Assembly (NCBI GenBank): GCA_963727175.1
Contig: CAVSFD010000002.1
Coordinates: 4,701,381-4,765,380 of the forward strand
Reading direction: 5' to 3'
Source: an uncultured Spirochaetota bacterium
GTDB taxonomy: Bacteria; Spirochaetota; UBA4802; UBA5550
DNA: 64,000 bases
Below are positions 2,345 through 42,823 of the stretch, in pieces. The notes under the pieces were generated by a model that had not been told where the DNA came from, did no database searches, and saw nothing but the letters and a program-made list of their open reading frames with translations. Within the stretch, counting starts at the first letter, position 1. Every line of letters starts with the position of its first letter. A program made the translations under genes and the position numbers.

Positions 2345-3399
2345 CTACTCCAGCGCCTTCTGTATCTCGGCCAGCACCTCGTCGGGAAAGGGTATCCCCC
2401 CGCCGGGCCTGCCGTAGAATGATATCTTCGCGTCCTTGTGCGCGTTAATCTTCACGTCATAGAGCATCTGGCCGGTGTTCATTTCCACAACCAGTATCTT
2501 TTTAATTCTTTCGGAGTGACGGTATACCTGCTTTTCAGGGAACGGGAAGAGCGTGATCGGCCGGAGCAGCCCTATCTTCATTCCCTGCTCCCGTGCCATC
2601 CGTATCGCCGTCTTGGCGATCCGCGCCGGGGTGCCGAAGGCCACGATCATCAGCTCCGCATCATCCAGGAACTTTTCCTCGCAGAGGACCTCGTTTGGCG
2701 CGGATTTCGTCATATTTTTTCTGAAGATCAAGGTTGTGCCGCTTCCTGTTCGCCGGGGCCCAGGTAGAGAGACTTGAGGAGCTTCGGTTTCTGTCCGTTG
2801 CGGCCTTTCAGCGCCCAGGGTTTTTCAGGAATGACGATGGGATGATCCGGAGTGAGCCGGCACGGCTCCTGGAACTGGCCCACCATGGCGTCCGCCAGAA
2901 TGACAGAGAGCATCCGGTACTTGTCAGCCAGTTCGAAGCCCTTGATGGTCAGGTCAAACATTTCCTGGACCGATGCCGGCGCCAGCACGATGTTATGATA
3001 ATCGCCATGACCGCCGCCATGGACAGCCTGGGTGTAATCCCCCTGGGTGGGGGATATGCCGCCGAGGCCCGGACCGCACCGCATGATGTTAACCACCAGA
3101 CCCGGGATTTCAGATCCGGCGATATAGGAGAATCCTTCCTGCATGAGGGATATGCCCGGGCCGGATGACGACGTCATGGCCCGCTCCCCCGACGCGCCGG
3201 CACCGAGGACCATGTTGATCGATGCGATTTCGCTCTCGGCGGGGATAAAGGTGCCGCCGTGTTTGGGGAGCTCCCGGGCAAGGTATTCGGGGATGTCGTT
3301 CTGAGGGGTAATGGGATAACCGAAGTAATACCGGCATCCCGCCTGTATCGCTCCCTCGGCAAGGGCTATGTTCCCCTTGGTCAGCTTCTTATCGGTCAT
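2345..3399 (-). CDS. 2-oxoacid:ferredoxin oxidoreductase alpha subunit, split into two ORFs (2728..3399 and 2345..2731) by an apparent frameshift or stop
   Basis: The N-terminal ORF (MTDKKLTKGNIALAEGAIQAGCRYYFGYPITPQ...) and the C-terminal ORF (...DDAELMIVAFGTPARIAKTAIRMAREQGMKIGLLRPITLFPFP) together make a normal ~350-aa alpha subunit. The junction sits at a TTGA overlap next to an A6 run. A third frame carries HNLDLQKKYDEIRAK, which reads like linker sequence. Confidence 0.7.
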
Positions 3400-4490: not shown

Positions 4491-6710
4491 TCAATCATCC
4501 CTTTTCCCGGTCATGACAATCTCTTTCAACTCGTTCGCCTTGTCCGCGATGACGTGAGTAAACCGCTGCAGCTTCCTGCTTGATTCTGCTATGCCCTGGG
4601 CCATTTCAGAAATGCGGAGTATTGTCCGGGAATTCTCTTCCATCGATTTCCTCTGCTCCGTGGTGGAGTTCTGGATGGTGCGCGACACCTCCTCCAGTAT
4701 CCGCGCCTGGTCTATGATTTTCATGATAATGGCTCCGAGATCACCCATCGCCCCTGACACCGTATCGACCTTTCCGGTAATCCCCTTTATGAGGGTGAAG
4801 ATCGCCTCTGTCGATTTCCTCGTTTCGTTCAGCATGGCGATACCGCTGGCGATATCGCTGGTTATCTTCGTTACCTGGTTCGATATGACTTTCGAATTCT
4901 CGGTGGTCCTGGCCGCCAGCTTCCCGATCTCGTCGGCGACCACGGCAAAACCCCGTCCATGCTCGCCGGCGCGCGCCGCCTCTATGGCGGCGTTCAAGCT
5001 GAGAAGGTTGATCTTGTCGGATATGTCGTCGATGACCGATATGAAATTATTGATGGTCTGGCCGCCCTCATTGATGATATGCATCATTGACATCATCTTC
5101 TCGTAATTTTCGCCGGTGGCGTCGGTGGTCTTTTCAATATCAGTAATGCCGGAATGCATCGCCTCGCTCAGGCTTTTCACGGACTGCTGTGTCCCCTTCA
5201 GGTTGTCGACCATCACGGATACCTTCGCCCGCTCCTCTTCCTGGCGGAACACCGAGTCCACGATCGACTCGATGGCGGAGGTGAGCTCCTCGAAGGAAGC
5301 GGACATCTGCTCGCTCAGGGATGCCTGCTCCATGGACATCTCTGACAGGCTCTTGCCCATGAGTTCTTCCTCCCTGCCGACGTTAAGGAGTTCGTTGGAG
5401 GTCATCTGCGCCTTCTCCATGACGCCTTCCAGGTACCGGTTCCGGTCTTCCAGATTGTCCTTGAGTTGATGCACCTCCCGGTTCATGGTCTTTATCTTGT
5501 CGGCGAGCCCAAGGGAAAGAAGCACCATCTGTGCGGCCCCGCCGAGAGGGACGCCCTGGTGCGTTATGAAGGATTCCGGAAGAACACGAACTGCCTTCAG
5601 GATATACAGACACGCGCCGAGGATCAGCGCGCCCCAGGCTATGAGGAAAAACCGCGCCGGCCTGCTGCCCTGACGCAAACAAATGACGCCGGTAACGATG
5701 AGGATGATGGCCAGAACGAAAGTCACCGCCATGGCGGGGATGACGATGCAAAAGTACGCGGTGTTGCCGAAAAAGGGCGTGAGGGCCCCGGTCGCGGCCA
5801 TGATGACGGCTCCCAGGACCGGAAAAGCCACGATCACCCGGTGGAGCCGGGGTACATGCACCTTCGTATCAAGAAATTTCTGCATGAACATTGAGCTGGA
5901 TATCATGACCAGGGAGACGCCCAGGAGTATGCAGTTCATCGCCATCCAGCTGAATCTCTTCCATATGAATTCGTTGCCGATGCCGTTCTCGGAGATGATG
6001 TAAAACAGGAACGAAAAAATGAAAAAGACCAGGTAAAAATAGTTTTCATCGCGTGACATGAAGAAGATGAAAAAATTATAAAGCATGATGATAATCATGG
6101 CCCCCAGGAGAACGCCCAGCACGATCTGTTCCTTCCGCTCGGCCTTGATGAATTCGATCTGGGACATGAGCCGCAGGGGAAACACGATACCGTCGCCGCT
6201 CTGAGCCCGGAGGTAAAAATGACGCGTCTCCCCCGGCTTGAGGCGCAGCTCATAAACAAACGTGCGCCGTTTTATCTCTTTCCCCGTGTAAGGCATGGAG
6301 CGCCCCTGCTGTTCTTCAATGAAGCCGCCCTTCGGCTGCGCGGTAAAAAGGGAAACATAATCTATGAGGGGATGGTTCAGCTCGAGGAGCCAGTCCTTTT
6401 CCTCCCCGGACGCGTTTTGTATGGAGAACCGTATCCACCAGGCGGACATGGTCTGCCCGATGTTGGGGACCTCCTCAGTGCTGATTGTGAACCTTTTTTG
6501 AAAATCAGGTCCCGATACCCGGTCTATCGTCAGGTTTTTTTCCGGGTCCTCCAGCAGGGCTATATACCTGCCCGGTATCTCATAATAATCGCTGCCTTTA
6601 TTGATCCTGAATGCATTCTGCGCAAACAGGGGCATGATTACCGATAACAAAAAAGTCATGACGAGCATACAGATGATGGCGGCCTGTGAAAATAGGGTTC
6701 GGTTCTTCAT
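4491..6710 (-). CDS. Methyl-accepting chemotaxis protein with 7TMR-DISM extracellular domain and 7TM module
   Basis: 739 aa with a signal peptide, a periplasmic ~150-aa domain, about 7 hydrophobic helices and a C-terminal MCP signalling domain ([30 protein letters not shown]). Confidence 0.8.
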
Positions 6711-6842: not shown

Positions 6843-7523
6843 TTAACGGAGAAGGCGCTCAGCGACAAAGTAAAAAAACGCCGCAGCCCCGAGATAGAGG
6901 AGCATGACGGAAAACGCCGCGGGAATCTTGAGCCAGTTCCTTTTTTCCCTGACCTGCTCAAAGGCATACCGGCACGACAGGCCCAGGATGATCTCGGGGA
7001 TAATGATATAGACCGCGGTATGCCCCACCATGGCCACGTTCCGCGCATACCAGGAAGGAAGCATCCACACGGTCTCCTCTGACGCGCCGAAAATCACCAG
7101 GGCCAGGAGCGCAGCGGCCCAGTAGCCGAAACGGGGAGAGAGGCGTTCACTGACCCGCCCGGCAGCGTATATAATGATGAAAACTGGAATGGCCCACAGG
7201 CCTGCCATGTAACCGGAGACTGTGCCGATTTTCAGGAACCCGTCCTCCGGGAAGACCAGTACTCCCAGCTGGTGCGAGAGGAACCAGTCAGGGAACACCT
7301 GGAAGACGCTCAGGATAAGGGCAAAGAGCCAGATGTTGATCCAGAGATCATAGCCGCGGAGCTTTGCCGTGACCGGCAGGGCGATATTGTACAGCACAAC
7401 AAGGATGAAAAGCTTGATGCCGATCTCAGGGCCGGGGATCAGGAGAACCGGGAGGCAGATCAGGGAAAAAGCCGCGTGGAGGATAATAGCATCGCGCTCT
7501 TCACGGGTTAATGAAAACTTCAT
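6843..7523 (-). CDS. Integral membrane protein of unknown function (5-6 TM helices)
   Basis: 226-aa ORF that is hydrophobic throughout. I recognise no catalytic motif. Confidence 0.45.
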   Translation of the reverse strand: MKFSLTREERDAIILHAAFSLICLPVLLIPGPEIGIKLFILVVLYNIALPVTAKLRGYDLWINIWLFALILSVFQVFPDWFLSHQLGVLVFPEDGFLKIGTVSGYMAGLWAIPVFIIIYAAGRVSERLSPRFGYWAAALLALVIFGASEETVWMLPSWYARNVAMVGHTAVYIIIPEIILGLSCRYAFEQVREKRNWLKIPAAFSVMLLYLGAAAFFYFVAERLLR

Positions 7524-7568
7524 GAATGCCTCCTTGAATCAAAATATCAGCCTTCTCAACAATAATTG

Positions 7569-28716: not shown

Positions 28717-29574
28717 CTATTCCTTACCGCCAGCTGCCCTGAGAAGTTGTACCACCTCATCATTACCATACTGGAGCGCCTTGGTCAGGGCCGTCTGCCC
28801 CAGGTTGTCCCGGGCGTTTGCATCAACCTGGTTCTTGAGAAGCAGCCTCACCACTGCCGCGTGTCCGTTAAGGGATGCCAGCATCAGGGCTGTAACGCCG
28901 TAGGAATCCGCCAGAGTGATCCTGGTGTTCACCCTGGCGCCGGCCCTGATGAGCAGCGCGGCGACATCGGCATGGCCGCCGTAGGATGCCATTAGAAGGG
29001 ATGTCCATCCCTTATCGCTGGCCGCATTCACGGCCGCATTGCTCTTAATGAGAAATGCAACCATGTCAGCATGACCGCCGCCGGATGCCAGCATGAGAGC
29101 GGTCGCGCCATGGTTGTCCCGCGCGTTGACCTGGGCTCCGATCTTCACCAGGTACTCGGCTACGCCCACGTATCCGTATTCCGCTGCCCGCATCAGGGCG
29201 GACATGCCATTGTTATCCTTCGTGTTAACACCGGCGCCTGCAAGGAACAGCGCCCTGACCGCATCAACAGTGCCGCTTTCTGCTGCCATCATGACCGCGG
29301 TCCTGCCGTTGATATCCTTCAGGCTGACGTCGGCCTTCTTACCGGTCAACAGGGTTATAATATCGCTTTTGCCGGCTCCGGCCGCCGCCATCAGGGCTGT
29401 CATGCCGTCACCGTTCCTTGCGTCGACCAGGGCTCCCGCCGCCAGCGCGGACCTCACGCCTTCGATGGACCCGCCGCGGGCAGCGTTGATAAGATCGTCA
29501 TTGACGCCGGCATGAACAGCAGAAAATGCGCTGAGAACCACGGCGAAAACCGCACCGTGCTTCATGAGATTCAT
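28717..29574 (-). CDS. Secreted ankyrin-repeat protein (7-8 ANK repeats)
   Basis: Signal peptide MKHGAVFAVVLSAFSAVHA followed by tandem 33-residue repeats (DxNGxTALMxAAxxGHxxxVxxLLxxGAxVNA). The start was chosen at MNLMKH. Confidence 0.75.
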   Translation of the reverse strand: MNLMKHGAVFAVVLSAFSAVHAGVNDDLINAARGGSIEGVRSALAAGALVDARNGDGMTALMAAAGAGKSDIITLLTGKKADVSLKDINGRTAVMMAAESGTVDAVRALFLAGAGVNTKDNNGMSALMRAAEYGYVGVAEYLVKIGAQVNARDNHGATALMLASGGGHADMVAFLIKSNAAVNAASDKGWTSLLMASYGGHADVAALLIRAGARVNTRITLADSYGVTALMLASLNGHAAVVRLLLKNQVDANARDNLGQTALTKALQYGNDEVVQLLRAAGGKE

Positions 29575-30279
29575 CGGGTCCCTCCTTGCTGCGCAGCAGC
29601 GGGCTGCCGGCGGCAACTGATCACCGCGTTATTTTCAACAGAGTCTATTATCCTCCATTTTCCGGAAATGTCCATATTTTTTTTAACTCTAACCGGAAAA
29701 TAGAAGCGAAGTGTTTGAGGGGTGTCACTATCCATGCAAACATGCAGGTCAGGTTGTGGTCATGGCAGGAACAGCCGCCGGACAATCGTGTGTGCCTATA
29801 TTTTATCCGTTACGGCGAATTCAAACTGGATAACCTGTTAAAAAAAGAGCCTTGCAACTTCATTGACAGTCCGACCCCGATGTTGAGCTGCTCCCCTTTC
29901 CAGCTCCCGGCAGGCCCACTGTACAAAGAAGGCATAACCAGTGCGGCATCACCGACCTTTGCCTCTTGTTCGACAGAAACCGCGTGGGCACTATTTCGGC
30001 CGATGAAGGTGAAAAGCATGATCACGCTGAAACACCCGATACCGGCGCTTAATTTGCTAGAATCAGGCTGAATAAAGGACTGCAGCATTGATCAGAAATA
30101 ATTATAACTGTAATAACCGCCCCTCACTGTATATAGTGTCACCGGCAAGTCATGATAAACAAAAAAATGTATGCATTTTTCCTGCGAGCCACCGGTATCG
30201 CGCCAGGAGCCGAGAAATTGATCTTGACTGGCCCGGTAAGATCGAACACCATAGCCGGGAATATTGAATCAATCCATTC

Positions 30280-30972
30280 ATGCCTATGCCTGAAAAGCAG
30301 ACAGTCCTTGTCATAGAAGACGAAGCGGGTATCGCCGACACGGTGACCTTTGCCCTTTCCCGCGAAGGGTTCGAGCCGGTCTGGACCGCCACGGGCGCCG
30401 AAGGCATATCCCGGCTGGAGCGGGGCGGCATCGACGCGGTTATCCTGGACATCGGCCTCCCTGACATCTCCGGTTTCGATCTTGCCGGAAAGATCAGGAG
30501 GCAGTCGAACGTGCCGCTCCTCATGCTCACCGCACGCACCGATGAGATCGACCGGGTCCTGGGCCTGGAGCTGGGCGCCGACGATTACATCGTAAAGCCC
30601 TTCAGCCCGCGGGAGCTTGTCGCCCGCGTCAGGGCGGTCCTCCGGAGAAGCGGCGGAACACCGCCGGCGGCACCGGAGAGCTCCCCCTTTGCCATCGATG
30701 CCGGCCGCCGCCAGATCTCGTACCGCGGCGTTGTGCTCGATCTCGCCCGGTACGAATACGAGATCCTCCGCCTCCTCGTCAGTCGCCCCGGCTGGGTGTA
30801 TACGCGGGAGAAGATAATGGAGATGGTGTGGATCGAGCCGGATGAAAGCTTCGAGCGCACCGTGGACACGCACATCAAGACGATACGGGCAAAGCTGCGC
30901 ACCGTCGATCCTGAGACCGACCCCATCATAACGCACCGCGGCGTGGGATACGCCCTGAAGGAGGACCTGTGA
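30280..30972 (+). CDS. creB: OmpR-family response regulator, CreB-like
   Basis: Receiver domain (VLVIEDEAGIADT...DAVILDIGLPDISGF) plus a winged-helix domain. It is followed by creC-like and creD genes. Confidence 0.75.
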   Translation: MPMPEKQTVLVIEDEAGIADTVTFALSREGFEPVWTATGAEGISRLERGGIDAVILDIGLPDISGFDLAGKIRRQSNVPLLMLTARTDEIDRVLGLELGADDYIVKPFSPRELVARVRAVLRRSGGTPPAAPESSPFAIDAGRRQISYRGVVLDLARYEYEILRLLVSRPGWVYTREKIMEMVWIEPDESFERTVDTHIKTIRAKLRTVDPETDPIITHRGVGYALKEDL

Positions 30973-32405
30973 GAATCAGGACGCGCATCCTCATCGGCTT
31001 CATACTCCTCTACGCTGTCGGATCCTATTTCGTGTTCGACATGATCGTCAGCGATATCCGCCCCCGTTACCTGGAAGCAGTCGAGGAATCCCTCAACGAT
31101 ACGGCCCACCTGATGGCGGCGCTGATCGAATCGGATATGAAAACAAAAGGATCCCCGTACGAAAGCATAAAAACAATTTTCAGCGCCGTGTCCCGGAAGA
31201 AAATATCATCCCGCATATACGGCCTTATAAAGTCGGATATAAACCTGAAGGTCTACGCCACCGACTCCCGGGGCATCATACGTTACGACTCCGATGGCGG
31301 CAAAAACGAGGGAAAGGATTTTTCCCGGTGGAACGACGTGTACCGGTCCCTGCGGGGGGCCTACGGTGCCCGGTCGTCACGATCGGTGCTCAGCGACCCC
31401 TCGACGAATGCGCTCTACGTGTCCGCGCCGGTCATGAAGGACGGCGCCATCGCCGGCGTGGTCACCGTGATCAAGCCGGAAAACAGCGTCACCCTCTTCA
31501 TGAACCTTGCCAGGCGGAAGATAATAACGGCGGCAGTCATATCAGGCATTGCCTTCATCATCCTGGGCGTCCTTCTGACCCTCTGGATCAACCGGCCCAT
31601 AGCAACATTGCTCCAGCACGTCAGGAACCTCCGCGCCGGGAAACGGGAGGAATTCCCCGACCTTTCCGCCGCCGAAATAAGGGACCTGGGGCTCGCCTTC
31701 GAGGATATGCGCGCCGAACTCGAAGGCAAGGATTACATCGAACGGTACATCCAGGCCCTGACCCATGAACTCAAGAGTCCCCTCTCATCGATCCGCGGTG
31801 CGGCAGAGCTCCTCGACGATGATATGCCGGAGGAGCAGAAAAGGAAATTCCACCGGAACATCCTGAATGAAACAGGTCGCATCGACAGCATCATCGAAAA
31901 ACTGCTGCAGCTGACAGCCATTGAGAAAAGGAAAAAGCTGAAAGACCGGGAGACGGTCTCCCTCAGCGGGATCGTTTCAGAGGTCATCGCAAGCCTGGAA
32001 CCGCAGATCATAAAGGGCGGGGTACGCATCGAGAACAGCGTTTCTCCGGGTCACGCAGTTACCGGGGAAAAATTTCTTATAACCCACGCGGTCCTGAACC
32101 TGGTTAAAAATGCGCTCCAGTTCACCCCTGACGGCGGCACCATAACACTGATGTCGGTTGCACAGGAGGTCTTCACCATCCTGACGATAGTTGATACCGG
32201 CACCGGCATTCCCGCTTTCGCCATGGATAAAATATTCGACAGGTTTTATTCCCTCCCGGGCAGGGACCGGATGCGCGGCAGCGGCCTGGGCCTCCCCTTC
32301 GTGCGCGAAGTAGCCTATCTCCACGGCGGGTATGTAGAGATTAAAAACAATTCCACCGGGCCGGGAGTCACCGCGACCCTGGCGCTTCCGTGTAAACGCG
32401 CCTAA
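30969..32405 (+). CDS. creC: Sensor histidine kinase, CreC-like
   Basis: 478 aa with a GTG start overlapping the creB stop, 2 TM helices flanking a periplasmic domain, H-box ALTHELKSPLSSIRG and an ATPase domain. Confidence 0.75.
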   Translation: MRIRTRILIGFILLYAVGSYFVFDMIVSDIRPRYLEAVEESLNDTAHLMAALIESDMKTKGSPYESIKTIFSAVSRKKISSRIYGLIKSDINLKVYATDSRGIIRYDSDGGKNEGKDFSRWNDVYRSLRGAYGARSSRSVLSDPSTNALYVSAPVMKDGAIAGVVTVIKPENSVTLFMNLARRKIITAAVISGIAFIILGVLLTLWINRPIATLLQHVRNLRAGKREEFPDLSAAEIRDLGLAFEDMRAELEGKDYIERYIQALTHELKSPLSSIRGAAELLDDDMPEEQKRKFHRNILNETGRIDSIIEKLLQLTAIEKRKKLKDRETVSLSGIVSEVIASLEPQIIKGGVRIENSVSPGHAVTGEKFLITHAVLNLVKNALQFTPDGGTITLMSVAQEVFTILTIVDTGTGIPAFAMDKIFDRFYSLPGRDRMRGSGLGLPFVREVAYLHGGYVEIKNNSTGPGVTATLALPCKRA

Positions 32406-32563
32406 CGCGGCGTTACCTTTTTTGCCCGAGGGGCCGGCATTATTGTGAGGGGGACTGTCTTCGCGGCCTCCCCCCTTGCGCTCCTCCCTCCCGGTCGCTC
32501 AAACGGCGCGGCGGCCTACGGGCGGTTGTTTTGAGGGCTTTGAGTTAGGATTAAATTTTTCTA

Positions 32564-32584
32564 TTAATACCCGCGGCAGGGATG
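32564..32584. repeat. Left copy of the direct repeat TT(A/T)ATACCCGCGGCAGGGATG. A G/A-rich hairpin lies 3' of it at 32688-32722.
   Basis: 20 of 21 positions are identical to the copy at 33541-33561. The AT-rich leader AAATTTTTCTAT is also similar. Confidence 0.5.
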
Positions 32585-32758
32585 CCGCAGGCGGTAATCG
32601 TCTGCAGGATGCTGCATACGATTGCCGAACAATTGAAGTAAATTCATAATTTAAGCCCGGCCCTCCGCAGGAGCGGGGTGATGGGGAGCACGAGGGGAAG
32701 AGGGAAGTCGCCCTCTTCCCCTCGCAATAGTGCAGACCCGCACCGGGTCATATAAGCA

Positions 32759-33418
32759 CTACTTCATGTACTTATCCCAATTGGTTGCAAGAAATAATGA
32801 GGTTATCTCCTTGATTGCCGCATTCACGTTCTCGATTTTGTCCGGCATGTGAACTATTCGGATCTGGATCATCATGTTGTTTTTATACAGGTAGGCTTCC
32901 GCTATATAGTAAACGTAATCGACCCGGGTTTTATCATCGAGCTCGACATTCTTCTGGGTCATCTTCTGGATGTATACATCGGCCTGGTTTATCGTCGATT
33001 TCGTGACCGGCCCGTAACTATGATTGCCGTGGTCTTTCTGGCCGTCCATTTTCCCGTACTGTTTTTGCTGCTGGGCCATGGAGGACCAGGTGGACGCCAT
33101 GTAGCCGGCGGTCCGGGGATTGTATCCCATGATCCCGACCTGGAGTTCAAGGCTGTAGTGGCCCTGCCTATTGTAATTTTTCTCGCCCTGTATGCCAAGA
33201 CAAAGAAACATCTTCTGGGTTTCCTCGTAGACCCAGTTCTTCGACTTGATGGGCACCCCCTTCGGCATCAGGCCCTCGAGCTCTTTCGGAAAGTTCTTGC
33301 CGCTCTTGTCCCCCATGTTCATGTATTCGTTCATCATGTCCGATGCCTGGTCGGCAAAAACCACGCAGGGGAACAGCGCGAGGAGGAAGTATACTATAAT
33401 TTGTGTCATTTTTTTCAT
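32759..33418 (-). CDS. Secreted protein of unknown function, encoded on the opposite strand between creC and creD
   Basis: 219 aa with a signal peptide (MKKMTQIIVYFLLALFPCVVFA). The sequence is Met/Gln/Tyr-rich and carries no known motif. Confidence 0.5.
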   Translation of the reverse strand: MKKMTQIIVYFLLALFPCVVFADQASDMMNEYMNMGDKSGKNFPKELEGLMPKGVPIKSKNWVYEETQKMFLCLGIQGEKNYNRQGHYSLELQVGIMGYNPRTAGYMASTWSSMAQQQKQYGKMDGQKDHGNHSYGPVTKSTINQADVYIQKMTQKNVELDDKTRVDYVYYIAEAYLYKNNMMIQIRIVHMPDKIENVNAAIKEITSLFLATNWDKYMK

Positions 33419-33540
33419 ATTAAAACTCCATGATATTGTAAGTTTCGGTAATCAGGTTCGATTTCTCCCTCAACTACCCGGCTGACATATGATGATACTA
33501 TTAATAAATAATCGAGAAATTAATTAATCGGCAAATATTT

Positions 33541-33561
33541 TTTATACCCGCGGCAGGGATG
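33541..33561. repeat. Right copy of the direct repeat TTTATACCCGCGGCAGGGATG. A hairpin GAGAGGGAAG...CTTCCCTCTC lies 3' of it at 33582-33612.
   Basis: See the left copy. Together the two copies bracket the secreted-protein gene. Confidence 0.5.
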
Positions 33562-33642
33562 GGAGTGCGCGAGAGGGAAGGACGGGGCGTGCTTCCCTCT
33601 CGCATGCAGGCCTGACCGGCTCCCGGTCAAAAAAACTCAAAC

Positions 33643-33669
33643 TTCATGGTATCTTCATAATAGTTTCAC
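33643..33669 (+). promoter_or_regulatory. cre-tag-like direct repeats TTCAT-N6-TTCAT-N6-TTCAC, 46-72 bp upstream of creD
   Basis: The sequence acTTCATggtatcTTCATaatagtTTCACc has 11-bp phasing. The E. coli CreB site consensus is TTCACnnnnnnTTCAC. Confidence 0.45.
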
Positions 33670-33714
33670 CCGCCCCCCCTATGTTATTGTAAAACATTAC
33701 ACAGGAGGAAACCC

Positions 33715-35082
33715 ATGTTTCTCAAAGGATTATCAGAATCCCTGATTTTTAAAATAGTTTTTACCGGAATGCTATCCCTTGCCCTGCTGATTCCCCTCAC
33801 CATGGTGAGCGGCATCGTGACTGAGCGGGAATCCAGGCGGGAATCGGCGGTAAGCGAGGTAAGCGGCAAGTGGGGCCATGAGCAGACGATCATCGGACCG
33901 GTGCTCACCGTGCCCTACCGTCATTATTACAAGGATGAAAAAAATGTCGCGCGGATGAGCATAGAAAACGCCTATTTCCTGCCGGACACTCTCGCCATCG
34001 ACGGCACTATCCTGCCGGAAAAACGGTCCCGCGGCCTCTACGAGGTGGTCCTCTACCGGCTGGAAGACCTTTCAATCCTGGGTCGCTTCAGCGCGCCGGA
34101 CTTCACGCGTCTCCGGGTCCCGGAGAAAGACATCCTGTGGGATGAGGCCTGCCTCACGGTGGGGATCCCTGACACGAGAGGCATCCAGCAGCGTGTCTCC
34201 CTCACCTGGAACAAGAAGGCGGTCCCCTTCCTTCCGGGGGTGCGCGGCAGCGGTCTGTATCAGTCGGGAATCCACGCCTTCATCAGGGATATCCGCTCAG
34301 GCGGCCGCACCTTCGATTTTGCCATGAAGCTATCCCTTCAGGGAAGCTCCTCTCTGAGCTTCGCTCCCCTGGGACAGGAAACGACAGTGCGCCTGAGCTC
34401 GACATGGCCGCACCCGAGCTTCACCGGCGCCTGCCTGCCCTCAACGCGGAAGATAACGGCGAAAGGATTTGAAGCGGGATGGAAAGTGTCGTACTTCGGC
34501 AGGAACTTTCCCCAGGAATTTACCGATGAAGCGAAAATCAACCCCGCCGATTCGGCCTTCGGCGTCATCCTCTACCAGCCGGTCGATTTCTACCAGAAGT
34601 GCGTGCGCGCGGTGAAGTACGGGTTCCTCTTCATCTCACTCACGTTTCTATGCTTCTTCCTCTTTGAAGTGTTCATGGGACTGAAGATACACCCCCTCCA
34701 GTACCTGATGGTGGGATTCGCCCTGTGCCTGTTCTATCTGCTCTTCCTGTCCCTGTCTGAATACATGAATTTCATCGTGTCCTACCTGGTAGCAAGCATT
34801 GGTACTATTGCAATGATTACCGGGTACAGCGTCAAGGTATTGAAGACGAGAAAGCGGGGCGGTGTCATGGCGGGGTTCCTGGCCGGCCTGTACGCGTATC
34901 TTTTCATCCTGCTGCAGAACGAGGATTATACCCTTCTCCTGGGGTCCGTGGCGCTCTTCGTAATCCTCGGTGCCGTTATGTATATCACGAGAAACATAGA
35001 CTGGTACCGGGTGAGCTTGAATACACCTGCACAGTCCGCAGCCGTGGGTCCGGGAGGAGGTCACAATACAGGTAATGATTGA
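33715..35082 (+). CDS. creD: Inner-membrane protein CreD
   Basis: 455 aa with an N-terminal TM helix, a large periplasmic domain and a C-terminal cluster of TM helices. Length and architecture match CreD. Confidence 0.75.
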   Translation: MFLKGLSESLIFKIVFTGMLSLALLIPLTMVSGIVTERESRRESAVSEVSGKWGHEQTIIGPVLTVPYRHYYKDEKNVARMSIENAYFLPDTLAIDGTILPEKRSRGLYEVVLYRLEDLSILGRFSAPDFTRLRVPEKDILWDEACLTVGIPDTRGIQQRVSLTWNKKAVPFLPGVRGSGLYQSGIHAFIRDIRSGGRTFDFAMKLSLQGSSSLSFAPLGQETTVRLSSTWPHPSFTGACLPSTRKITAKGFEAGWKVSYFGRNFPQEFTDEAKINPADSAFGVILYQPVDFYQKCVRAVKYGFLFISLTFLCFFLFEVFMGLKIHPLQYLMVGFALCLFYLLFLSLSEYMNFIVSYLVASIGTIAMITGYSVKVLKTRKRGGVMAGFLAGLYAYLFILLQNEDYTLLLGSVALFVILGAVMYITRNIDWYRVSLNTPAQSAAVGPGGGHNTGND

Positions 35083-35172: not shown

Positions 35173-36321
35173 TTATTTAATCAAAGTGATATAGGCCGGA
35201 GACTTAAGCAGAAAGTGTTCGGCCATTTCGAATATTACGATATCGGGCTTCTCCGCCTCGATAACGTCCCGGTTGAAGCGGCCGTAGCTCTGGAAGCAGG
35301 CCATCCGGCTGAAATGGTCCGCCATCAGGGGCTTGATGAAGTTGAAAAACGAATCGTGGAACACAACTGCTTTCGGCCTGCTCCGGTCGTTCGATTCGAT
35401 CGCTTCGGTGAATCTGCTGAAGGGAGCCGGGTAGGTGACGGCCGCTGTTTTCCATTCCCGCTTTTCCTTCGGAATGAAAATGGGGATTTCCTCGGTGAAC
35501 CTGTCCTCGAGACCCAGCAATCTCGCCAGATCCCCGCCGATAAAATGTTTCGTTGTTACCGTGAAATTTTCCAGAGAATGGGGAACCATCGGTCCCAGGA
35601 TGCCGGAGAGCCTGCCCATTATGGCGCGGTACGCGTAGTAGGCTCCGTAGTCGTTCCAGTGAACATCATGCTTGTAGAATACCAGATGGCCCTTCTTGCC
35701 GGTGATGACGCCGGGGCCGGTGTCAAGAACATCAATATCGGTGTGCTGTTTCATATACTGCATGATCTGGTCGAGGCGGGTCCGGTCCTGCACCGGCCTC
35801 AGGTACTCCGGTACGTATTCGGGATACACCCGCGGCTTCATGGGAACGAACACAACCAGCATCCGGATCCCTCTGCCGGCAAGGAACTTCTGTATTTCGG
35901 CAAGGGGCTTCACCCATTCCGCCATTTCCTTTTCCCCCTTGAACAGGGAAAGGGAACGGTAGTAGTCGAAGGAATTGTTCCCGTCGTCGTCCTTGATGAG
36001 ATAGAGCCAGCCCTTCCTGCCGACGAGCACCTTGGGAAACTGTTCGACCCTGAGGACATTCAGCTTGAAGAGGCTGTTCCACCGGATGAGGACGTTGCGG
36101 AAGCCGAAATTGTCCACGTAGTACTTCATGAACTTGCTCTGGAATTCTATAATCGACCTGCGGTCTAGCGTTAGCTCCGGCAATTTTGTCATGGTGCGCT
36201 GTTCAGTGTTCTCCCCCGGTGCGATCCCCATCATGCTTCCGATGTTAGGCACCCAGATGGCCATCATGAACAGTACTATGGTGATTGTATATGCGACTGA
36301 TGTTATCCTGGATTCCTTCAT
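35173..36321 (-). CDS. AlgX/AlgJ/PatB-like periplasmic O-acetyltransferase partner (SGNH-like)
   Basis: 382 aa with an N-terminal TM anchor and a periplasmic domain. It sits immediately downstream of an MBOAT gene, which is the typical MBOAT + AlgJ-like pairing. Confidence 0.55.
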   Translation of the reverse strand: MKESRITSVAYTITIVLFMMAIWVPNIGSMMGIAPGENTEQRTMTKLPELTLDRRSIIEFQSKFMKYYVDNFGFRNVLIRWNSLFKLNVLRVEQFPKVLVGRKGWLYLIKDDDGNNSFDYYRSLSLFKGEKEMAEWVKPLAEIQKFLAGRGIRMLVVFVPMKPRVYPEYVPEYLRPVQDRTRLDQIMQYMKQHTDIDVLDTGPGVITGKKGHLVFYKHDVHWNDYGAYYAYRAIMGRLSGILGPMVPHSLENFTVTTKHFIGGDLARLLGLEDRFTEEIPIFIPKEKREWKTAAVTYPAPFSRFTEAIESNDRSRPKAVVFHDSFFNFIKPLMADHFSRMACFQSYGRFNRDVIEAEKPDIVIFEMAEHFLLKSPAYITLIK

Positions 36322-36331
36322 GGATTGTACC

Positions 36332-37777
36332 TCAGAATTGCCTGTAGATGAACGGGGTATACGTATCGCTCGCCAGGGCCATCGCCGAGAGGAGCAGCAC
36401 GCAGGCCAGGAAGATTATCTGCGCAGTGAAAAAGGCTATGGAAAGCACGCGGTAGGTGGAGCCGTTTTGGGCATCAATGAAGGCTTCTACTTTTCCCCTC
36501 ACGAAGGGAGCCAGGGGCACCGAGCCTACCAGGGCCAGGATGATCCCTATAATCGTGTCTGAATTGCTTATGAACTGGATAAAGTCATAGCGGGCAACGG
36601 CGGGACGGATGGCGCCGTACATGGTGGCGATATAGGTTCCGGCGGCGGCCAGGTCGTTGGCGCGGAAAAAGACAAAGGATGTGAAATAGAACATGAGCAG
36701 GTAGAGGTGGCCGAAAGGCGACCGTTCGGTTACATTACTGGTGGCCCTCTCGAAGGCCATGAAGATGCCGTGGCACATGCCCCAAATAACGAAGGACCAG
36801 GCGGCTCCATGCCAGAGGCCCGATATGAAGAAAATGATGATAATGTTAAAATACGCCCGCGCATTGGAAACACGGTTGCCCCCGAGTGGAATGTAGAGGT
36901 AATCCCGGAACCAGGCTGTCAGCGTTATATGATAACGGCGCCAGAATTCGCCGACCGAACGCGATACCAGGGGATAATTGAAGTTTTCCATGAACTTGAA
37001 CCCGAACATCTTCCCCAGGCCGATCGCTATGTCGCAGTACGCGACCCAATCGAAGAGCAGTTGGAGCCCGTAAAGGGCCGCCCCGAGCCAGGCCACCCCC
37101 GCCGTCAGGTCCCGGGCCGGGACCGCGAATATCTTGTCCACAGGCACGCTCAGCACATTGGCAATCAGTGCCTTCTTGCCAAGCCCCATGATGACCCGCC
37201 TCACCCCTTCGGCGAAATCGGTCCTGGTGACGCGACTATCCGCCAGCTGGGGCGCCATGTGGTGGTATGTCTCAATTGGTCCCTGCAGCACCTTGGGGAA
37301 CATGGCAATGAACAGGCCGAGCTTCACCGGGTCTTTTTCAGCTTCAACCTTACGGCGATATATATCCATGCAGTAGGTTATTATCTGGAACGTGTAAAAC
37401 GACAGGCCCACCGGCAGCTTGAAACGCGGGACGGTAAAGGGCGCCGCACCGAAGAGACCGATGATTGTGTTGATATTGGTGACGAAAAAACCCGTGTACT
37501 TGAAAAAAACAAGGGGGAATATGTTGCACACCAGGGATATAACCAGGATCATCTTCCGGCGCTCGCCTGCGCGGGCGAGAAGGATCCCGAAATAATAGTT
37601 CATGACTATGTATAGCACTATCAGAAGGGTGTATATCTTCTCGTCCCAGAAATAAAACACGAAGCTCGCTATAAGAAGGTATACGTTCCTCGCCATCGGC
37701 CTGTTTCTCAGGAAAAAGAAAATGACCAGCGTTATGGGAAGGAAAAAAAACAGGAATGTAACTGAACTGAAAACCAT
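36332..37777 (-). CDS. MBOAT-family membrane-bound O-acyltransferase (AlgI/DltB/PatA-like)
   Basis: 481 aa and polytopic. The conserved His region is WHGAAWSFVIWGMCHG, and the sequence matches the FYTFQIITYCMDIYRRK segment of AlgI/DltB. Confidence 0.8.
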   Translation of the reverse strand: MVFSSVTFLFFFLPITLVIFFFLRNRPMARNVYLLIASFVFYFWDEKIYTLLIVLYIVMNYYFGILLARAGERRKMILVISLVCNIFPLVFFKYTGFFVTNINTIIGLFGAAPFTVPRFKLPVGLSFYTFQIITYCMDIYRRKVEAEKDPVKLGLFIAMFPKVLQGPIETYHHMAPQLADSRVTRTDFAEGVRRVIMGLGKKALIANVLSVPVDKIFAVPARDLTAGVAWLGAALYGLQLLFDWVAYCDIAIGLGKMFGFKFMENFNYPLVSRSVGEFWRRYHITLTAWFRDYLYIPLGGNRVSNARAYFNIIIIFFISGLWHGAAWSFVIWGMCHGIFMAFERATSNVTERSPFGHLYLLMFYFTSFVFFRANDLAAAGTYIATMYGAIRPAVARYDFIQFISNSDTIIGIILALVGSVPLAPFVRGKVEAFIDAQNGSTYRVLSIAFFTAQIIFLACVLLLSAMALASDTYTPFIYRQF

Positions 37778-42418: not shown

Positions 42419-42823
42419 GTGGGGGTGCCGGCCATGCTTGAATTTCTCGATTACTTCTTTCTTATCTTTCACACTATCTTCACCCTCTTCAACATGACGG
42501 GATGGATCTGGAAAAAGACGAGAAAAATCCACCTGGCCACTATCACGGCCACTGCCTTTTCCTGGTTTATCCTGGGGATCTGGTATGGTTGGGGGTTCTG
42601 CTTCTGCACCGACTGGCACTGGAAGGTGCGTTCAGCCCTGGGCCGGCCCATCACCTCCGATTCATACATACACTTTCTCATTCTCGACATAACCGGAATC
42701 AACCTGCCCCCCCGCCTGGTGGATACGGCCACCCTGGCGGTCTTCGCGGCGTGCTGTGTTGCCAGCATCGCATTGAACCTGAAGGATTTTGCAAGGTATC
42801 GCGCGGATAAGCGCAAAGGCTGA
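42419..42823 (+). CDS. Small integral membrane protein, hypothetical
   Basis: 134 aa with 4 predicted TM helices. Confidence 0.4.
   Translation: MGVPAMLEFLDYFFLIFHTIFTLFNMTGWIWKKTRKIHLATITATAFSWFILGIWYGWGFCFCTDWHWKVRSALGRPITSDSYIHFLILDITGINLPPRLVDTATLAVFAACCVASIALNLKDFARYRADKRKG

Follow-up and report, generated by a model that had tools for sequence, protein, structure and literature searches.

A predicted three-unit CreB operator upstream of creD in an uncultured spirochaete

Upstream of creD in a 64-kb stretch of DNA from an uncultured Spirochaetota bacterium (contig CAVSFD010000002.1; this whole stretch is hereafter called the window), three pentamers of the form TTCAY (Y, C or T) stand in phase as direct repeats. 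The array is real and under selection, and we consider it very probable, judging from sequence comparison, that it represents the CreB operator (cre/blr tag) of an activator-dependent creD promoter. The same array is found upstream of creD in all the related Spirochaetota loci compared, its pentamers are far better conserved than the DNA between them, it stands at a fixed distance from a -10-like hexamer, and it occurs together with the genes for the response regulator CreB and the sensor kinase CreC (together, creBC), the recognition helix of CreB being nearly the same as in E. coli.

The array upstream of creD and its link to CreB

The first-pass annotation of this DNA had placed TTCAT, TTCAT and TTCAC at 11-bp steps 46-72 bp upstream of creD, and these coordinates turned out to be exact. 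The period is 11 bp from start to start, the three units lie on the + strand 72-46 nt before the creD ATG at 33715, and the region across them reads aacTTCATggtatcTTCATaatagtTTCACccgcccccccTATGTTattgtaaaacattacacAGGAGGaaacccATG. The array is thus a direct repeat of the TTCAC type with 6-nt spacers, in which units 1 and 2 carry T in place of C at position 5, and it is situated in the promoter region of creD, the archetype of the Cre-regulon genes. The elements concerned are the following.

30280-30972, + strand: creB, OmpR/PhoB-family response regulator, presumed binder of the array (NF008296, 306 bits; cut-off 273)
30969-32405, + strand: creC, sensor histidine kinase (NF008312, 540 bits; cut-off 356)
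33643-33647, + strand: cre-tag unit 1, TTCAT, promoter-distal, centred at about -47 from the predicted start; columns near-invariant in 14 spirochaete promoters
33654-33658, + strand: cre-tag unit 2, TTCAT, centred at about -36, at the place of a -35 element; consensus TTCAyAaT
33665-33669, + strand: cre-tag unit 3, TTCAC, promoter-proximal, at about -27 to -23, centred near -25
33680-33685, + strand: predicted -10 hexamer TATGTT, with A as second and T as sixth base, at fixed offset
33692, + strand: A predicted as transcription start, 7 nt beyond the hexamer, giving a 5' untranslated region of about 23 nt; suggested by a conserved A-rich patch ('aaAa')
33703-33708, + strand: Shine-Dalgarno sequence of creD, AGGAGG; GGAG precedes the ATG in all spirochaete loci
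33715-35082, + strand: creD, presumed regulated gene, 455 aa (NCBIfam NF008712 CreD, 511 bits; cut-off 275; PF06123 homologues)

For comparison 19 genome loci were fetched (designated by L numbers), and 13 of them are Spirochaetota loci with usable upstream DNA, in which CreD is 56-90% identical to the CreD of the window. The pattern TTCAY-N6-TTCAY-N6-TTCAY is present upstream of creD in the same orientation in 13 of the 13, with a fourth unit in L007; three units are the conserved state of the clade and no peculiarity of the window. The closest CreD proteins and loci belong to Spirochaetota/Leptospirales metagenome-assembled genomes (MAGs), and the window locus is not enterobacterial. Anchored on unit 1, the consensus reads caCTTCACac....TTCAyAaTc..TTCAc, unit 2 always following 11 bp after unit 1 in the arrays compared, while position 5 of unit 1 is T in the window alone and C in the other 13 of the 14 spirochaete promoters; at unit 2 the form TTCAT is frequent among the relatives. 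The degree of conservation along the 14 arrays (mean pairwise identity; information per column) is as follows.

Pentamers: 0.93; 1.86 bits
Spacers: 0.52; 0.97 bits
Next 10 bp: 0.36; 0.51 bits
Random column, n = 14: 0.17 bits

Because conservation drops sharply outside the pentamers, the alignment argues for purifying selection acting specifically on them.

The simplest alternative is that a common pentamer happened to cluster, without function, in an AT-rich promoter region. TTCAY is indeed over-represented in the window (418 on both strands vs 250 expected), and there are other TTCAY dimers at 7511 and 42468; the dimer pattern TTCAYN6TTCAY has 4 matches vs 0.72 expected from dinucleotide shuffles, 2 of the 4 being overlapping registers of the creD array. 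The triple pattern with at most one mismatch, however, was found once in the window vs 0.05 expected, and at the observed TTCAY frequency chance would by our calculation give about 0.005 triples and about 1.4 dimers per window, so that the triple at creD is remarkable and the two other dimers are not. Moreover, position, phase and orientation are kept in the 13 relatives while the spacers diverge, these relatives are not near-identical strains (CreD identity down to 56%), and the same architecture recurs in E. coli and other lineages. Chance is effectively refuted by this footprint, and we assign it a negligible probability.

The specificity of the motif was measured with position weight matrices (PWMs). 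By a PWM trained on the 13 related loci only, leaving the window out, the window site scored 26.7 bits, and the next non-overlapping match within the 64 kb scored -0.2 (background mean -54, standard deviation 12.3). By a PWM made from all 14 arrays, each of the 13 related loci (138 kb in total) matched only at its own creD array and the overlapping registers of it.

As for the presumed regulator, the genes creB and creC lie 1.3 kb upstream of creD, and both exceed the NCBIfam equivalog cut-offs, while the PhoB models stay below their own cut-offs for the window CreB. With its E. coli counterpart the window CreB shares 46% identity (for CreD the identity is about 33%). Its recognition helix is conserved, reading RTVDTHIKTIRAKL vs RTVDTHIKTLRAKL in E. 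coli, with one I/L exchange as the sole difference, and the pattern common to the lineages with TTCAY arrays is RT[VI]D[TA]H[IV]K.[IL]R.K[LM]. Among solved structures the window CreB comes closest to RegX3 (2oqr), MtrA (2gwr), BaeR (4b09) and M. tuberculosis PhoP on DNA (5ed4), with E-values from 1e-51 to 1e-34; among these solved-structure matches there is no CreB, either free or on DNA.

The association of the array with creBC holds in 12 of the 12 spirochaete loci for which upstream DNA is available, and it extends to distant metagenome loci. Among 75 usable distant creD loci (CreD 40-51% identical; creBC adjacency judged within +/-3.5 kb), in-phase YTCAY arrays are carried by 5/5 loci with creB or creC adjacent vs 7/70 of the others (Fisher p = 4.6e-5, or p = 0.015 when TTCAY alone is counted). 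In the array-bearing metagenome loci the identity of CreD to named proteins among the matches listed does not exceed 50%. Upstream of 80 distant creD genes, an unbiased search for pentamers present as at least three exact copies in phase returned TTCAT/ATTCA only, and by this measure no competing motif emerged from these 80 genes. The distant arrays with creB or creC at hand are these.

L039 and L062: four TTCAT units; creB or creC in the flank
L071: TTCAC, TTCAC, TTCAA, TTCAA; creB or creC in the flank
L040 (about 3275-3345) and L046 (about 3295-3355): CTCAC repeats as two pairs; order creB-creC-creD, creB at 882-1601 in L040 and 988-1743 in L046

In the two loci with CTCAC repeats, L040 and L046, the CreB helix reads RAVDTVIKNIRNAL and the wing is changed as well; helix and repeat thus appear to co-vary, a suggestive correspondence drawn from a single lineage pair.

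These data bear on the possibility that the repeats are the operator of another OmpR/PhoB-family regulator and resemble the cre tag by convergence. Direct repeats phased at 11 bp are bound by many OmpR-family regulators, and the arrays of L047, L058, L070 and L072 have no creBC visible within 3.5 kb. Furthermore, an in-phase triple of another sequence (TTGCAC, TTGCAC, TTGCC/GTGGC, 10-11 bp spacing) is situated upstream of creD in L013 (about 4800-4835), L014 (about 390-420) and L019 (about 4815-4845), three MAGs of Thermodesulfobacteriota/Syntrophaceae type with no creBC within 5 kb, which suggests that creD in these three is under another direct-repeat-binding regulator. For the spirochaete array, however, the constant company of creBC, the identity of the pentamer with the experimentally defined CreB site of E. 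coli, and a CreB helix that is conserved and changes where the repeat changes all speak against a different regulator, which we regard as very unlikely; CreB is the preferred candidate.

One of the related loci, L012, is in a peculiar state. Between 2721 and 6287, a deletion appears to have fused creB to creC, joining creB residues 3-175 to creC residues 202-478 with loss of the CreB DNA-binding helix, and creD has an early stop and is broken into three frames; the cre tag is still intact (TTCAC, TTCAT, TTCAC). This state reflects either a recent decay of the system or an assembly error.

Promoter geometry and mode of regulation

In 23 of 23 arrays, namely those of the window, of the 13 spirochaete loci, of 8 distant metagenome-lineage loci and of E. 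coli K-12, the last unit is followed at a distance of exactly 10 bp by a hexamer of the form yAnnnT, whose mean information is 1.18 bits vs 0.51 for the 10-bp gap before it. In L040 and L046 the gap between the last unit and a -10-like TACATY is about 20 bp instead of 10 bp. The 11-bp spacing is kept in all arrays except for the third unit of E. coli (10 bp) and for L070 and L072 (one unit degenerate). A generic scan detected no sigma-70 -35/-10 promoter upstream of creD, positions 33657-62 reading ATAATA, and a canonical sigma-70 promoter, with none matched there, was dropped as a candidate for creD.

Tandem direct repeats at about one helical turn, the proximal one abutting the core promoter, together with the presence of a -10 and the absence of a -35 consensus, are the marks of class II activator promoters, and all of them are seen here. 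Since the array ends 10 bp from the predicted -10 and takes the place of a -35, we infer class II activation by CreB; the geometry is pho-box-like and suggests an activator-dependent creD promoter. Regulators of the OmpR/PhoB family bind direct repeats as head-to-tail dimers. Phosphorylated CreB, a winged-helix member of this family, would bind the successive units head-to-tail on one face of the DNA at the 11-bp period, with the middle unit at the place of the -35 and the proximal unit ending 10 bp before TATGTT (33680-85). The bound CreB would then replace the missing -35 and recruit RNA polymerase, as at PhoB-dependent pho-box promoters, and upon a signal from CreC the creD gene would be transcribed from about 33692.

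The opposite mode of action has to be considered, in which CreB binds the array as a repressor or dual regulator, occluding the -35 region, and creD is de-repressed without (phosphorylated) CreB. The units overlap -49 to -23, where a bound protein could block the polymerase, and in Stenotrophomonas maltophilia, which carries a tag homologue reading TTCACACTCGCTTCAA, the creD transcript was up 3.83-fold on creBC inactivation (PMC4689548). The promoter has, however, no recognisable -35 for polymerase to use unaided; the 10-bp offset to the -10 hexamer is invariant, a signature of PhoB-type class II activation; and creD is activated by CreBC both in E. coli and in Pseudomonas aeruginosa (PMC4689548, PMC2654508), in the latter as the tightest CreBC-dependent gene (PMC2654508). 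We judge repression improbable and retain activation by CreB.

Several points nevertheless weigh against activation of creD by CreB through this array, besides the response of S. maltophilia and the limited flank (+/-3.5 kb) within which creBC adjacency was judged at the distant loci. Of the 14 arrays that of the window scores lowest (26.7 vs 31.9-45.2 bits by leave-one-out scoring), mainly because its unit 1 reads TTCATgg and not TTCACac, and two of its three units are TTCAT, not the canonical TTCAC. The 14 spirochaete promoters are homologous and not independent samples, the argument lying in the contrast between pentamer and spacer. The -10 and start-site assignments are themselves predictions, and the comparative evidence consists of sequence.

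The creC-creD cassette and other sites in the window

The gap between creC and creD is 1.3 kb in the window, while creD directly follows creC in 9 of the 13 relatives, and the insertion noted between the two genes by the first-pass annotation is real: it is a variable cassette with a 219-aa open reading frame (ORF). The features of the interval are the following.

32759-33418, - strand: 219-aa ORF with a signal-peptide-like N-terminus; variable cassette between creC and creD, inverted here
33613-33635, + strand: hairpin TGACCGG-ctc-CCGGTCA plus A7 tract, directly 5' of the array; 5' edge of the module staying with creD

The 219-aa ORF has no match in Pfam or NCBIfam. It is present in L003 and L012 on the + strand (71-74% identical), and the window segment 32715-33525, including this ORF and its 5' region, is inverted relative to both; L002 has a 520-bp creC-creD spacer without an ORF. 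Within 32414-33622, direct copies of the ancestral spacer module, TTAATACCCGCGGCAGGGATG, flank the cassette, one at 32564 and the other at 33541, and each copy is followed by a GC-rich hairpin (32691-32724; 33569-33603) and also by a GACC.GG/CC.GGTC hairpin. Homology to the four close relatives L001, L002, L003 and L012 resumes at 33596-33622, directly 5' of the hairpin, the A-tract and the array, and from this we conclude that the module with the promoter stayed with creD. The array would thus act as an autonomous promoter module that remains attached to creD in spite of the cassette inserted, and here inverted, between creC and creD. The further claim that CreB control of creD is retained despite the insertion is well supported at the level of sequence.

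The A7 tract occupies 33629-33635 (about -63 to -57), and an A/T tract precedes unit 1 in most of the spirochaete loci (L001-L015), its polarity differing among loci (A-runs or T-runs); it may be a remnant of a creC terminator or an UP-like element. A known RNA element in the creC-creD spacer was rejected, the Rfam search of the spacer giving a sub-threshold, meaningless match only.

It had also been proposed that the motif could predict the rest of the Cre regulon. The motif can serve this end on whole genomes, but no second promoter-like site was found in the window, and regulon prediction is only weakly served there. The suggested pattern search for TTCAY dimers, run on the 64-kb window, returned the creD array as the only promoter-like site, with extra dimers at 42468 and 7511, and the triple PWM found no site but that of creD in the window. 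The first extra dimer is a perfect E. coli-type tag (TTCACactatcTTCAC, 42468-42483, + strand) lying 34 nt inside a DUF2784 membrane-protein ORF (42434-42823). The best extra match of the dimer PWM covers 42467-42484, with ATGACG, not yAnnnT, at the canonical +10 offset, and this tag is probably due to chance, being within the about 1.4 dimers expected. The DUF2784 gene is present in none of the fetched loci. The second (TTCATgaagttTTCAT, 7511-7526, - strand) lies across the start codon of a DUF6989/acyltransferase-like gene (6843-7523, - strand) and was likewise judged a chance match. Regulon members within the window beyond creD were accordingly rejected, the two dimers lacking promoter geometry or being read as chance. 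CreB autoregulation was rejected as well, neither the window nor any of the spirochaete loci showing an array by PWM upstream of creB.

Two neighbouring genes, an AlgX-like SGNH hydrolase/acetyltransferase gene (35173-36321, - strand) and an MBOAT/DltB-like gene (36332-37777, - strand), converge on creD, and this synteny is kept in L001, L002, L003 and L012. CreD may be functionally linked to acylation of an envelope polysaccharide or of teichoic-acid type. On the other side, upstream of the cre locus, 28717-29616 (- strand) codes for an ankyrin-repeat protein, with synteny of overlapping ORFs in L002, L003 and L012; such a protein is unusual for a free-living bacterium.

Comparison with known systems

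The cre/blr tag (TTCACnnnnnnTTCAC) serves as the operator for CreB/BlrA in E. coli, Aeromonas, P. aeruginosa and S. maltophilia. It has been described upstream of creD as TTCACN6TTCAC (PMC4689548, PMC13214185), and PMC3962086 states, citing Avison 2001, that CreB binds to it in vitro. The resemblance to the E. coli CreB element that the first-pass annotation had pointed out was borne out: the pentamer, the 11-bp period, the orientation and the target gene creD are the same, and so are the adjacent creBC and the helix of the regulator bar one I/L exchange. On the other hand, the tag has been known from Gammaproteobacteria and the window array is in Spirochaetota, the published tag has two units and the window three (three to four in other lineages), two of the window units are TTCAT, and the window creD is parted from creC by the 1.3-kb cassette. 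Among the literature searched we found no paper joining CreBC with spirochetes; CreB is absent from the main text of the P. aeruginosa atlas made by HT-SELEX (systematic evolution of ligands through exponential enrichment, at high throughput), and the search for CreB data by DNA affinity purification sequencing (DAP-seq) returned a review only.

In E. coli K-12 the region upstream of creD reads TTCACcgtcacTTCACatagcTTCAA. Along this promoter (L020 4102-4143, corresponding to NC_000913.3 4638101-4638142), two TTCAC units are followed at a 10-bp offset by TTCAA at 4638122-4638126, a degenerate third unit, and exactly 10 bp after this comes CATAGT, so that E. coli and the window have the same 10-bp distance between the proximal unit and a -10-like hexamer. 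TTCAA is the proximal unit also in L071 and L085. The two-unit tag thus seems to be the best-conserved portion of an array with three to four units. We may go further and suggest, tentatively and with more doubt than confidence, that the two-unit tag under-describes the CreB operator and that the ancestral functional unit, from Spirochaetota to E. coli with its overlooked third unit TTCAA, consists of three to four in-phase TTCAY pentamers with the proximal one locked 10 bp from the -10. If this is true, CreB would act on the array as a trimer or tetramer, or else as two dimers that overlap, the co-variation of helix and repeat (TH..T with TTCAC; TV..N with CTCAC) would be a readable specificity code, and the array model could be used for mapping the Cre regulons of uncultured phyla.

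A regulator-operator pair that had been known from Gammaproteobacteria alone is hereby extended, as a prediction, to an uncultured spirochaete lineage, and the CreB-creD circuit would be ancient and cross-phylum, with its promoter geometry kept to the base pair. The cross-validated matrix, together with the rule of three to four units, a 10-bp gap and yAnnnT, could be used on complete genomes for predicting Cre regulons, and the E. coli creD promoter merits a second look as to whether it holds a degenerate third CreB site. Little is understood so far of the physiological signal of CreBC and of what CreD does; a conserved, easily recognised reporter promoter is useful in this respect but settles neither question.

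The second system for comparison is the pho box of PhoB-dependent promoters, in which tandem 11-bp units replace the -35 and end 10 bp upstream of the -10. The window array has in common with it the tandem direct repeats of 11 bp on one face of the DNA, the 10-bp gap to the -10 hexamer, the absence of a -35 consensus, and a regulator of the OmpR/PhoB family. It differs in that the regulator is CreB and not PhoB, and in that the pho-box core, CTGTCAT, is arranged in pairs whereas TTCAY is repeated here in an odd number, three. On the whole the finding is largely expected, the kind of site being known from E. coli and now met in a new phylum; the new points are modest and consist of the three- to four-unit array with its base-pair-locked geometry, the cryptic third unit of E. 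coli, and the CTCAC/helix variant.

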